A stretch of 64,000 nt of DNA from Chrysomallon squamiferum. Taxonomy: Eukaryota > Animalia > Mollusca. Below the pieces are notes generated by a model that did not search any database, had not been told where the DNA came from, and saw only the letters and a list, made by a program, of their open reading frames with translations. The position numbers and the translations under genes were made by a program. Location of the stretch: contig CM022671.1 in the NCBI GenBank assembly GCA_012295275.1, forward strand, positions 33,790,001 to 33,854,000. Direction: 5' to 3'. This document shows, piece by piece, positions 3,175 through 22,338 of the stretch. Every line of letters begins with the position of its first letter. Position 1 is the stretch's first letter.

Positions 3175-3436
3175 ATGTATCTCAATACGTCAAGATATTC
3201 ATTCATTGTGCTGCTGTTTACACTGATTTACCAAACTGGATATTGTGAAGGATTACAACCTGTTCTGTCAGAAAACGGTCAAGTGAAAATGATTTGTCTC
3301 TTGGACATACACAAGTCGTATTCGAGCGCTGACAAAAAGTGCAGCGACTTTCAACCGAAGACCATGTTTGTGGCGTTAACAGCTTTGTGGAAGTGGAATT
3401 CAGTTTCAAATGTTTCGGGGACGTATGAAAAAATAG
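3175..3436 (+). CDS. Triple-VFT class C GPCR, coding exon 1 (signal peptide and start of VFT1)
   Basis: ATG at 3175. Hydrophobic signal-like segment SFIVLLFTLIYQTGYC, then GQVKMICLLDIH..KKC..ALTALWKWN, resembling the mGluR GDIILGGLFPVH..C..EAMLFAIDEIN region. Donor G|GTAATA at 3437, phase 1. Confidence 0.75.
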
Positions 3437-6400
3437 GTAATAATTTGAAATTATATTTGTTCTTTCTGTCCATTTCACTTTTTCTCTCTTTCTTTTTCTC
3501 TAGTACTAGTCGCAGTAGTAAAAAATAATTGACGAATGAAAAAATAAAAATGAAAGTTTATTTAAATATAAGATTCGTACAACAATAACGAAAGCAGTGT
3601 ACAAAGTATTCATAATTTTGTATTTTATTGTAAAGCTGTTTTTTAATTTTAATATATTTTTTTTTTTATTCAATTTAGTTTAGTTTATTACTTTTACTTT
3701 TTTATTTATTTATTTATTTCCACCCCCACCCCCCGCTTGCTCAGTGTAAATGCTCCACACCCAGGTCGGTAATCTACAAAAATATTTAAAAAAAAAAAAA
3801 AAAAAAAAAAAAATGTTGTTTTCATAATCATTATTATTTTTCCTGCTGTCAAATTTCTGTTATTATTGTTGTTGTTGTTACTGTTGCTGTTGCTGTTATT
3901 TTGTTATTAACTACTGTTAATTAACTACATTGTAATTATTACACTTTTATCGTTAATATAGCTGCTGAAATTTTATCACTATAATTATTTAAAATATCAA
4001 AAAAAAAAATATAAAATTATTAAGCCTGTTTAATACTTTAATGTTTGCACATGTATTTTTCTGCATTCTTTCTGCATATTTGCGTGCACCCATTAGCAGT
4101 TTTACTTCTTTGCTTGAATGAATTTATTTATTTATTTATTTATTTATTTATTTATTTATGTATTATATTTGAGTGTATATATTATTTTGTTACGTCTGAG
4201 TTTACATGTGCGTGTTTTCGTGTTAGATTACGTTCACTATCGTCAGTTTTAAAATAATAATAATAATAACAATTTTATATATTCATTTTGAAAATGTATT
4301 TTTATAAGATATGCAAATCATTTTAGCACATGGAAGGTCTGTTTCTAACTAAAATAAAAATTCGAAAAATGTTTAGGAGAATAATAATAACGATCAAAAG
4401 TAAGATTCAGAAAAAAAAAAAAAAAAATGTCGTCTTCACTTCATTACACTAAACTCTTATAGAGGAGCATTCTCACCATACGACTTACCGTAATCTCTCT
4501 CTCTCTCTCTCTCTCTCTCTCTCTCTCTCTCTCTCTCTCTCTCTCTCTCTCTCTCTCTCTCTCTCTCTCTCTCTCTCTCTCTCTCTCTCTCTCTAGCAAC
4601 TTATAAAGACTTGATATAATATCGTCGTTTTGAACAAATCCCATAAAGGTTTATTAAACATAACAAACTGTCCAAAATAAAAAAAAGGAAATAACTTCGA
4701 ACTGTTTAAATTTGATTAATCTCTTCACGTCATATGTCATGAATCGTTACTAAAAGTCGTATAGTAAGAACGCTGCTTTACTCTAACACGTGACACCTAG
4801 TTGACGATCTCACATCACATTAATTTTTTTTTTCTTTTTTTTTTTTTTTTTTTTTTTTTTTCTTCTACTTTTGGTTTGGTGTTTGTAGCTTTTCATTTCA
4901 CTATAGACATGCCAAAAATCAATTATCGCCTTATGGAAACTATTCTGAAAACTGAAAACAGAAAGAGAAAAAAAAAAAAAATTCCTTAAAGATATGACTG
5001 GCATGGACGCGAAAAATCTGCCTCTGTTTAGCAAAGATTTTACATCGGGTTGCCGAATGACAATCTCATTTAAATTTGGCTTAAGATAAAGGGTAGTGTA
5101 AGTTTGTTGACCAGGACTAAGCTAACACAAACACTGACCCATGCTGTTCTGAAACGTGTCTCTGCCAATAACACACAGACAGTGACTGACAGTGTTGTGA
5201 TAGAACAACATAACTCTGTATTATCTATATTGACAAACATCACTAATAGAATACACTCGTGCTTGCCGTCATATTAACACCTCTCATTTTTTTCTTAATA
5301 TTATCTTTTAAAGCGTTTTTTTTTTTTTTTTTAATCTTTTGTTTATACTGTATTGGCTTAGTCCTATGTGTAGAGTTTTGTTAATCAGTATGTATATTAA
5401 ATATTTTTTTTTCTTTAAAAATATCATTTGTATATATGTATATTTCAGTGTGTGTATGTATGCATGCATGTCTATGTGTATGTATGTTTGTATGTATGTT
5501 GTATGTATGTATGTATGTATGCATGTACGTACGTTTTTGTGTATGTTTGTATGAATGTCTGTGTATGTATGCATGCATGTCTATGTGTATGTTTGTTTGT
5601 ATGTATGTTGTATGTATGTATGTATGTATGTATGCATGTACGTACATTTTTGTGTATGTTTGTATGAATGTCTGTGTATGTATGAATGCATACATCATTA
5701 TATGCGCGTAAGTGTTTATGTATGTGTCTATATTTAAGTATATATGCATGAATGGATGGGTGAATGCATGAATATACATGGGTATGTCTGTATTTCTGTG
5801 TTATGTGTGTGTATCTGTGTATGTGTGTGTGTGTATATATATATATATGTGAATGTACATTTATATGTATTGTTTAACGTGTTGCGTAAATACATTAAAT
5901 AGAGCACAAAAAAAAAAAAAAATTTGAGAGAGAGAGAGAGAGAGAGAGAGAGAGAGAGAGAGAGAGAGAGAGAGAGAGAGAGAGAGAGAGAGAGAGAGAG
6001 AGAGAGGCGTGAGATAGTTATTAAACTAAAGACTAAAGTCAACAGAATACTGGCCACTGTAAAAACTATTTCCGCGCTTCTCTTTTCTGTCCCCATCATG
6101 TCCAAATACTAATCTCTGGTTTTGGATTACCTGATAATTTTCTGGCATCAAATCCTAAAACGTCAGAGAAAGAAAACAGCTTTACAGAACAGAGAAATGT
6201 GTTGTTATATAAATAGTCCGGAAAAGATGAATTACGTAAATCTCAAGTGATTTTAATATAACAGAGATATTGCTTTTTAATAAATATCAGATGAGAGTGA
6301 AGAAGAATTTTTGACTTCCTGTAATCACTGACATTACCTGTTAAATGTTGTTTTTGTTTGTTGTTTTTTTGTTTGGTTTGTTCTTTTGTTTATATGTTTG

Positions 6401-6643
6401 TTTGTTTAGTTAATTTGTTTTTGATTATTGTTGTTGTTGTTTGTGTTATTAATATAAAAATTATACTCGAAATTTGCTGTTAGATTGGAGAAAATAATAA
6501 CAATAATAATATTAATAACAACAACAACAACAATGACGATGATGATGATAATGATGATAATTATTATTATAATAATAATATGAGATCAGATTACATAATA
6601 TATATATATATATATTTTACTTTTTATTATTATTATTATGCAG

Positions 6644-21003: not shown

Positions 21004-21216
21004 GTAACGAGTTTTTCTACAGTTAGTTTATTATGTTTACACTACAGAAATTTACTTATTTACTGTACAGGTTCTTCCTGGGTGATTTTATAAATTTCTG
21101 ATTCAATGTAAATGATTAACTTTTACTTGTAAATTCGATTTTAAAATGCTTGCATGCTAAAAGGATCGTAACCAAATTTCTTTCAATTAACGTATTTGAT
21201 TTGTTTTATTTTTCAG

Positions 21217-22338
21217 GTTGGACAATGGCATGATTTTCACTTACAGCTGGATTTCAACAAAGTGAAGTTTTACAATGAAGAAGGACAAGAGTTGTCCACA
21301 GCCAGGTACTCGCAGTGCATCGAGGACTGTGTCTGTCTCAACATCAACGTGACGAAACTGTTCGAGATGCCAGCTCAAGTGTACGACGCAGCGCGCTTCT
21401 CCGACAGCTCTGGGACGTTTAACGGTGTGCTGTGGACCACGGTCATCCTAGCAGTGGCGTCGTCCGGAGCATTCATCTCCTTTGTGCTCATGATATACGT
21501 CCTGTACAAAGTGTGTTGTGGAGCGCTCGCAAAGAGACACGTCTGGCTCGGGTTAATCCTTCTTGCTGGAGTGATCCTGCTGTACCTGTCGGTCATCCCG
21601 TTCACGTTCACGCCGTCGGAAGGTGTCTGCGGTCTGCGGTATTTTGCGCCAGGTTTCAGCTACGCGCTGTGTTTCGCGTCCATCTTGGTGAAGCTGACGT
21701 CACTTCGCGATTACCGACTGATCGGACTTGGAGGTGAAGTGTCGAACCTCAACCAGATGCTGTCCGTGCTGTTCATCTGCGGAGTTCAGCTGGCAGTGGG
21801 CGTCCAGTACTGGGCACGGAACAAGCCAATGCTGGTGACAAAGACGCTGGGATCCATCACAGTGTTTGCCTGCGCATTCGAGAAGGGAGAATTTGCCGTT
21901 TATCTCATTTACATTATGATTCTCATACTGACTTGCTCCATCTACGGCATCGGCGTTCGCAAAGAACGCAAGAACATGGGTGAAGCAAAGCTGCTGCTGA
22001 CCTGCAGCTGGCTGTGTATCGTTGTGTGGATCGCCTGGTTGATTGTCTTCTTCGTGCTCGGCAGTGAGTTCATGGATGCCTCGATCTGCGTCGCTATCCT
22101 GGCCTGCGCCACGCTCATGCTTGTTGGCATCTTCATTCCAAAGATTCACCTCGTCTCGCGACTCAAGTACGACGTGTCCAAACACGCAACGGGCACGATG
22201 AGCAACGGCTACAAAGTAGATCCAGATTTCTTTTTCGAAAGACCGTATTCCCTGCCTGGAACAATGACGAGTTCGTACTCCTCTGTGAAGACGTTTCCTA
22301 AGAGCATCACTCATTTTGACTCGTCAATGAGCTATTAG
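21217..22338 (+). CDS. Triple-VFT class C GPCR, terminal exon 7 (Cys stub, class C 7TM and C-tail)
   Basis: Acceptor ttttcag|, starts VGQW. Seven hydrophobic helices with class C motifs CGLRYFAPGFSYALCFASILVK (TM3), KNMGEAK (ICL3, cf. mGluR ENFNEAK) and GIFIPKIHLV (TM7, cf. FxPKxY). Stop TAG at 22336-38. Confidence 0.95.
   Translation, partial: VGQWHDFHLQLDFNKVKFYNEEGQELSTARYSQCIEDCVCLNINVTKLFEMPAQVYDAARFSDSSGTFNGVLWTTVILAVASSGAFISFVLMIYVLYKVCCGALAKRHVWLGLILLAGVILLYLSVIPFTFTPSEGVCGLRYFAPGFSYALCFASILVKLTSLRDYRLIGLGGEVSNLNQMLSVLFICGVQLAVGVQYWARNKPMLVTKTLGSITVFACAFEKGEFAVYLIYIMILILTCSIYGIGVRKERKNMGEAKLLLTCSWLCIVVWIAWLIVFFVLGSEFMDASICVAILACATLMLVGIFIPKIHLVSRLKYDVSKHATGTMSNGYKVDPDFFFERPYSLPGTMTSSYSSVKTFPKSITHFDSSMSY

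Follow-up and report, generated by a model that had tools for sequence, protein, structure and literature searches.

A class C receptor gene of Chrysomallon squamiferum with three tandem Venus flytrap modules and an apparent kinship with BOSS

BOSS (bride of sevenless) is a class C G protein-coupled receptor (GPCR) whose Venus flytrap (VFT) module is reported (PMC11743138) to be 'pocketless', lacking both the pocket loop and the dimer interface of the metabotropic glutamate receptors (mGluRs), and to bind a protein partner, Sevenless, by strand augmentation. The same source describes the sequence ancestry of BOSS as difficult to trace, and a 2026 review adds that BOSS is also a glucose-responsive GPCR (PMC13232746). 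Here we report a class C receptor gene with three VFT modules, located in a window of 64,000 nucleotides (nt) from the mollusc Chrysomallon squamiferum (assembly GCA_012295275.1, contig CM022671.1, positions 33,790,001 to 33,854,000, forward strand), to which all coordinates refer. The window consists of animal DNA, AT-rich and rich in microsatellites, and the gene occupies positions 3175-22338 of its + strand. A preliminary description, made from the sequence alone, had compared the protein with mGluR, CaSR and T1R and had missed BOSS, to which trees of the seven-transmembrane (7TM) domain and an Atlas cluster point as the nearest characterised kin.

In literature searches, no paper on class C receptors with several VFTs was found, although subscription papers and supplements may mention them; the three-VFT architecture is not described in the accessible portions of PMC11650548, PMC1192796, 10.1101/2020.04.23.037242, PMC13176968 and PMC10670001.

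The gene and its reading frame

The seven exons proposed in the preliminary description were all present with GT-AG borders. They are listed below with the corresponding amino acids (aa); CRD stands for cysteine-rich domain.

3175..3436, + strand: exon 1, aa 1-87; holds the start codon and a likely signal peptide and opens VFT module 1
6644..6739, + strand: exon 2, aa 88-119; part of module 1 with the VYDTCGS motif and helix B; AG/GT, phase 1-1
15419..15585, + strand: exon 3, aa 120-175; part of module 1 with the GVITYTS strand, helix C and the pocket loop
16748..17467, + strand: exon 4, aa 176-415; remainder of module 1; RNA contig coverage
17881..19160, + strand: exon 5, aa 416-842; phase 0-0 cassette with a four-Cys linker and VFT module 2, short pocket loop
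19046..19056, + strand: false stop site; one-base assembly deletion creating TGA 19054-19056
19624..21003, + strand: exon 6, aa 843-1302; phase 0-0 cassette with a four-Cys WCP-type linker and VFT module 3
21217..21423, + strand: exon 7, first part; aa 1303-1371 close module 3 and form a three-Cys stub instead of a nine-Cys CRD
21424..22152, + strand: exon 7, class C 7TM, aa 1372-1614
22153..22338, + strand: exon 7, cytoplasmic tail and stop, aa 1615-1675; FERPxSLPGT motif

As assembled, exon 5 measures 1,280 nt and the joined coding sequence (CDS) 5,027 nt, which is not divisible by 3, and the frame ends at codon 807 in exon 5, at the TGA at 19054-19056. This stop had escaped the preliminary description, whose phases (1,1,0,0,0,0) and length (about 1675 aa) do not fit the assembled sequence and hold only after a correction based on reads. 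Nine public runs from three studies contain the stretch, and four of them were aligned over 16700-19340. One additional base at 19046-19047 was observed in all three covering runs (RNA run X6, DNA runs X1 and X5), which come from three studies; run X9 ends before this site and has no vote. Since one extra base occurs there in runs from three studies, the stop in exon 5 is an assembly error, the TGA being the product of a one-base deletion. After correction, the CDS is an open frame with phases 1,1,0,0,0,0 and a product of 1,675 aa. The additional base, which adjoins a short A run, is not identical among the runs; as its identity varies, 19046-19047 is likely a polymorphic site that the assembler dropped. 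Alternative donors bypassing the stop were rejected after the reads gave the additional base.

The start codon of exon 1 is the first ATG behind an in-frame stop; the exon ends at a GT donor and aligns with the N-termini of the orthologs. In the RNA contigs of both RNA runs (one study), exon 4 is joined to exon 5 and the end of exon 3 lies directly before exon 4, and in one of them (X6) the start of exon 6 lies directly behind exon 5. A single X6 contig of 4,605 nt joins exons 3-4-5-6; it extends 623 nt upstream of exon 4 (exons 1-3 code for 525 nt) and 1,981 nt downstream of exon 5 (exon 6 has 1,380 nt), and this length fits the additional presence of exons 1-2 and part of exon 7. Joints 3-4, 4-5 and 5-6 are thus backed by reads and joints 1-2, 2-3 and 6-7 rest on the window sequence; the contig is itself assembled and does not alone prove a single transcript. 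Among 17 exonic variants, 12 were synonymous. It was concluded that the locus is one expressed class C receptor of 1,675 aa, with expression shown across exons 3-6. The separate transcription units for exons 1-4, 5 and 6-7 that the preliminary description had considered were not found, one RNA contig spanning exons 3-6.

Flytrap modules, clefts and kinship

In the window protein, three homologous modules precede one 7tm_3 domain. By profile comparison (HH-align), module 1 was related to module 3 at 98.8% (E 1e-16) and module 2 to module 3 at 99.96% (E 3e-39), all three modules being related across about 390-400 columns. The VFT motif series had been said to occur three times; it does so in the sense of three homologous modules, but is looser in module 1, where LLDIH replaces G-x-F-P-x-H. 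The single class C 7TM behind the modules was recovered in exon 7 (7tm_3, E 3.7e-27, 96 bits versus a cut-off of 33.5, profile 7-251 of 251). Of the three ANF_receptor matches predicted beside it, only the one in exon 6 passed the Pfam cut-off (50.9 bits, E 1.6e-13, profile 4-351); exon 5 fell below it (23.2 versus 25.4 bits, E 4.2e-5), and no ANF_receptor match was obtained for exons 1-4, scanned as single exons. The latter result reflects divergence and fragmentation and is no argument against the fold. When 16 whole homologs were scanned, three ANF_receptor stretches did appear in 10, two in 4 and one in 2.

The folds of modules 1 and 2 were modelled on abalone orthologs, and that of module 3 was assigned by Pfam on the window. 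For the three-module ectodomain of H. rufescens, AlphaFold2 gave a mean pLDDT (predicted local distance difference test) of 65.8 and a pTM (predicted template modelling score) of 0.43, a value at which the geometry between modules is unreliable; module 2 of this model resembles the mGlu8 VFT (Z 26.5, 365 aligned, root mean square deviation (rmsd) 4.4). Module 1 of H. rubra, modelled alone (pLDDT 71.6, pTM 0.76), had the T1r2a VFT as best match (Z 22.7, 360 aligned, rmsd 4.7) and also resembled GABA-B, CaSR and mGlu VFTs as well as bacterial binding proteins. Thus, all three modules are Venus flytraps, module 3 by Pfam and modules 1 and 2 as predicted by the abalone models, which give class C VFTs for the two repeats whose fold had been in question.

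Every module closes with a short Cys stub; the stubs between modules have four Cys and the one before TM1 has three. Both inter-module linkers follow an invariant C-x3-C-x2-C-x2-C pattern, and Cys is the most numerous class among the invariant ectodomain residues. C95 in exon 2 and C1336, C1340 and C1342 were invariant in all 12 aligned sequences, as was T125 (exon 3, module 1) among the aligned sequences, and the lobe-2 Cys is invariant in every module (C216, C637, C1079). Before TM1, three Cys were counted in 12 of 13 mollusc rows and one in the remaining row, versus 9-10 in two mGluR-like controls. Introns 4, 5 and 6 are all of phase 0 and lie at similar positions near the module ends, so that exons 5 and 6 represent cassettes.

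For the 7TM, the best solved relative was mGlu2 (E 5.2e-17), and its intracellular motifs are conserved among orthologs. The cytoplasmic tail (22153-22335) is more conserved than the 7TM, with a mean pairwise identity of 53.8% versus 48.7% (n=12); it contains the motifs YDV and D-x2-F-x-FERPxSLPGT and frequently a terminal S-x-S-Y, and may serve as a docking site. Among proteins of at least 600 aa, the tail profile matched the mollusc group only.

In order to examine the ligand clefts, pocket positions were mapped from an mGluR-like control (P0137) onto 30 modules of 10 mollusc species, with residue numbers of mGlu3; in the module alignment the D-motif column, being poorly aligned, was excluded from the conclusions. 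The arginine of the RTVP loop was found in 0 of the 30 mollusc modules, versus 9 of 12 modules from multi-VFT receptors of amphioxus, Saccoglossus and octopus. The Tyr-Gly pair was likewise absent (0/30) and the key Ser was present in 3/30. The glutamate-pocket positions (Ser, Thr, Tyr-Gly, RTVP loop) were unconserved among orthologs in all three modules, and the absence of these residues was also seen in the alignment to mGlu3. Furthermore, the pocket loop of module 2 has 21-25 residues in all 10 sequences versus 33 in the control, about 11 fewer, and the abalone model of this module is without helix C. The helix C sequence pattern is mGluR-like in module 1; in module 3, polar residues occupy the positions that form the dimer contact in mGluRs, and module 2 has degenerate versions of both helix B and helix C.

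The nearest database protein, P0001 of Gigantopelta aegis (72% identity over 835 aa), covers module 3 and the 7TM only; as it begins at the exon-6 linker without a signal peptide, it would be a truncated gene model. Longer orthologs of 1,652-1,935 aa occur in Haliotis (two), Lottia, Patella, Mytilus, Potamilus, Sinanodonta, Argonauta, Octopus and one more, and two further ones in Mizuhopecten and Saccostrea; other matches include several partial gene models. The abalone proteins align end to end with the window protein (about 40% over 1,700 columns), and colinear orthologs exist in gastropods, bivalves and cephalopods. The preliminary description had guessed that gene models of this kind may exist in other invertebrate genomes, and they are indeed found there in NCBI entries that are uncharacterised or named 'mGluR-like'. 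The window protein and 11 orthologs went into the module profile, so that the scores of these members are circular; P0021 and P0022 lie outside it.

The two models of Mya and that of Mercenaria (together P0015, P0016 and P0017) contain modules 1 and 3 only. In these gene models the WCP-type linker of exon 6 directly follows module 1, a pattern as from loss of the exon-5 cassette. In P0026 (Babylonia clade), module 2 was reduced to traces. The gap in the clam models and in P0026 may reflect a true loss, splicing or the annotation.

To place the receptor, 176 proteins with a 7TM match were reduced to 148 by removing 12 near-duplicates and 16 short rows, from which 61 rows for a first tree and 40 for a mixture-model tree were picked by hand; both trees were rooted at the midpoint, the root being assumed. 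The mollusc receptors formed one clade (support 100/98). Two 7TM fragments from ENA, P0030 and P0031, were sister to it (98/86) and share its GLGG loop motif. Mollusc, nematode, arthropod one-VFT orphan and BOSS rows were united by a branch with 99/98 support (99/97 under the mixture model), and a 99/97 branch separated the mollusc 7TM from the mGluR-like rows. An approximately unbiased (AU) test, in which the groups were named after an earlier tree, rejected a union of the mollusc family, the receptors with four to five VFTs and the mGluR-like rows (p-AU 0.019). A first AU test (p 0.0006) was set aside as inflated, the four-to-five-VFT group not being one clade. The BOSS label derives from the NCBI name of P0092 and from Atlas clusters named bride of sevenless, which came first for P0160 and second for the abalone ortholog. 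The BOSS rows formed a clade of their own (100/100) without mollusc rows, so that the mollusc receptor is a relative of BOSS and not a strict BOSS ortholog.

The modules were also compared in trees, a first one with 77 of 82 modules and a second one with 37. Module 1 grouped with the first modules of arthropods, the BOSS clade and nematodes, and modules 2 and 3 with the second modules of nematodes (98/98 by the Shimodaira-Hasegawa-like approximate likelihood ratio test, SH-aLRT); in the nematode family, 37 of 39 proteins had two module matches. From these groupings we infer that a protostome ancestor probably carried two VFTs, an A-type one distally and a B-type one proximally, an arrangement that nematodes would retain. 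Molluscs would have duplicated the B-type exon cassette into modules 2 and 3, and the arthropod orphans and BOSS would have kept the A-type module only, the proximal one having been lost.

Proposed role, rival explanations and the remaining window

Of the three functional ideas in the preliminary description, namely sensing of several ligands, pairing of VFTs within one chain and an adhesion-like stalk, the last fits best, with a distal docking role proposed by analogy with BOSS. Because pocket residues are absent from all three modules, sensing of several amino acids is disfavoured, and the flytraps likely serve, if BOSS is a guide, as a long docking stalk. Our tentative preference, which we hold to be somewhat short of probable, is a BOSS-like receptor in which three modules without the glutamate-pocket residues form a disulfide-stapled stalk with a distal recognition module. 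The outermost flytrap would be the recognition unit and bind a macromolecular partner, as the VFT does in BOSS, module 2 would be a spacer without a pocket and the innermost flytrap would relay movement to the 7TM, whose conserved second intracellular loop might, together with the tail, couple to a G protein or scaffold. A more specific version appears to us improbable: the mollusc receptor would be a lengthened BOSS-like juxtacrine receptor-ligand, its distal flytrap, a homolog of the BOSS ectodomain, binding a ROS1/Sevenless-type kinase or another protein displayed on the surface of an adjacent cell. Pocketless flytraps, of which arthropods have one, nematodes and some clams two and most molluscs three, would then serve by their number as a ruler for the cell-cell gap, and BOSS would have arisen from a two-flytrap ancestor by loss of the proximal module, which would explain its absent CRD.

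Several observations weigh against the stalk. The pocket loop of module 1 is full-length (30-34 residues) and a Thr is invariant at its cleft rim, which counts against a wholly inert cleft; Asp recurs at the Thr-equivalent site (module 1, 5 of 10 sequences; module 3, 6 of 10), and, together with the module 1 features, this recurrence could mark a non-canonical small-molecule site. Module 1, the proposed recognition unit, is the least conserved module (24.6% mean identity), its C-terminal third was modelled poorly in abalone, and the geometry between modules is unreliable in the three-module model. The kinship has weak points too: the outgroups were the matches of one query, with no identified GABA-B, GPRC5, CaSR or T1R rows, a topology with BOSS as sister to the remaining group was not rejected (p-AU 0.275), and the module trees were quick searches with many long branches. 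Finally, according to the 2026 review (PMC13232746), the Sevenless-binding N-terminus of BOSS has no known homolog outside Diptera.

The loop, T125 and the frequent Asp would also suit a re-tooled small-molecule sensor, in which module 1 and perhaps module 3 bind a sugar, an ion or another non-amino-acid and closure is relayed along the chain. We regard this as unlikely, yet as a possibility to be taken seriously, and the multi-ligand sensor of mGluR/CaSR type suggested in the preliminary description likewise takes second place. Every module retains the lobe-2 Cys with a Cys linker behind it, the arrangement that couples the VFT to the CRD in mGluRs, and a glucose response of BOSS is reported (PMC13232746); however, the cleft positions vary among orthologs, and module 2, which the relay would need, has no full loop and is missing from the three clam models. 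It is rather less likely that the protein is a ligand-blind partner subunit, forming a heterodimer with another class C receptor (for example a multi-VFT receptor with an intact pocket) and providing trafficking or G-protein coupling. GABA-B2 is a precedent, degenerate pockets are combined here with a conserved 7TM and tail, molluscs possess a separate multi-VFT family (P0155/P0177) whose pocket motifs are canonical, and module 1 keeps an mGluR-like helix C pattern. Against such a partner, module 2 has no helix C, the helix C of module 3 carries polar residues where mGluRs dimerise, and BOSS reportedly has no dimer interface of the mGluR kind (PMC11743138).

Pairing of two modules of one chain through lobe 1, mimicking the class C dimer, seems very improbable: linkers, though short, are present between all modules, but helices B and C of module 2 are degenerate and, with one, two or three modules in the wider group, pairs are not favoured. 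A pseudogene, or separate genes fused in the preliminary description, is almost certainly not what the locus represents. The stop in assembled exon 5, the extent of P0001 (module 3 and 7TM only) and the restriction of read-backed joints to 3-4, 4-5 and 5-6 would speak for it; in opposition, the reads restore the frame, the 4,605-nt RNA contig covers exons 3-6 and is long enough to include exons 1-2 and part of exon 7, most exonic variants are synonymous, the abalone proteins are colinear end to end, and P0001 begins at the exon-6 linker, without a signal peptide, like a truncated model.

Elsewhere in the window, an open frame of 463 codons on the - strand (43954-45342) ends with three C2H2 zinc fingers (Pfam), whose sequence resembles that of a KLF/Sp-family factor. 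The - strand of intron 2 contains two GC-richer islands (11392-11691 and 13470-13889), each with an open frame, of 100 and 140 codons respectively, that gave no Pfam match; the islands may be repeat remnants or regulatory DNA. A tandem array at 32194-32687 consists of 12.9 copies of a 38-bp unit (89% matches). For 23 other open reading frames of the window, no Pfam match was obtained at the cut-off.

Comparison with known systems

The class C model, in which one flytrap per chain closes on an amino acid within a dimer, is here extended to the fold as a repeated structural unit, and the three-flytrap chain with empty pockets in gastropods, bivalves and cephalopods raises the question of how a signal passes across stacked modules. 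The trees give BOSS a family outside arthropods and a model for its unusual ectodomain, and a likely two-module relative in C. elegans would bring the question within reach of genetic tests. For these proteins, the database name 'metabotropic glutamate receptor-like' and others of its kind are misleading.

Compared with the best solved relatives, mGlu2 and mGlu3 (PDB 8tqb, 2e4u, 7mtq; profile E 8e-74), the mollusc receptor shares the VFT fold and a class C 7TM with the TM3 Lys, the N-x-x-EA motif, the TM3-ECL2 Cys pair and the TM7 PK. Where they have a single VFT with an intact glutamate pocket and a dimer interface formed by helices B and C, followed by a nine-Cys CRD, it has three VFTs, Cys stubs and no glutamate pocket.

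Other multi-VFT receptors (2-3 VFTs in amphioxus, 4 in Saccoglossus, 4 in tick and scorpion, 4-5 in Octopus LOC106868777) also combine tandem VFTs, short Cys linkers and one 7TM. They are likewise uncharacterised but belong to a separate 7TM lineage, and the amphioxus, Saccoglossus and octopus modules, unlike those described here, mostly retain amino-acid pocket motifs. This separate class C set with two to five VFTs comprises P0041, P0099, P0108, P0110, P0128, P0143, P0151 and P0155/P0177, from amphioxus, hemichordate, crinoid, tick, scorpion and octopus. Yet another multi-VFT layout was seen in P0002 of Batillaria attramentaria (1,537 aa), in which two VFTs with canonical pocket motifs are followed by what appears to be one membrane helix and by a long tail of low complexity; a 7TM is absent.

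The nematode two-VFT orphan, linked to 'CELF35-1' by two database names, belongs to the same 7TM group as the mollusc receptor and shares with it the four-Cys linker and the module order, A-type first and B-type second; it differs in having two modules instead of three and in its tail. We take 'CELF35-1' to be C. elegans F35H10.10. Coverage of the latter gene concerns reporters and expression in the accessible parts of 10.1101/2020.04.23.037242 and PMC13176968.

BOSS and its insect cognates fall into the same supported 7TM group. They resemble the mollusc receptor in a VFT without glutamate residues, in the lack of a full CRD and, in most BOSS-clade rows, in a three-Cys stub before TM1, and their VFTs group with mollusc module 1. 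They differ from it by one VFT versus three, and the BOSS rows, a set without Drosophila BOSS, showed neither the GLGG loop motif nor the FERP tail.

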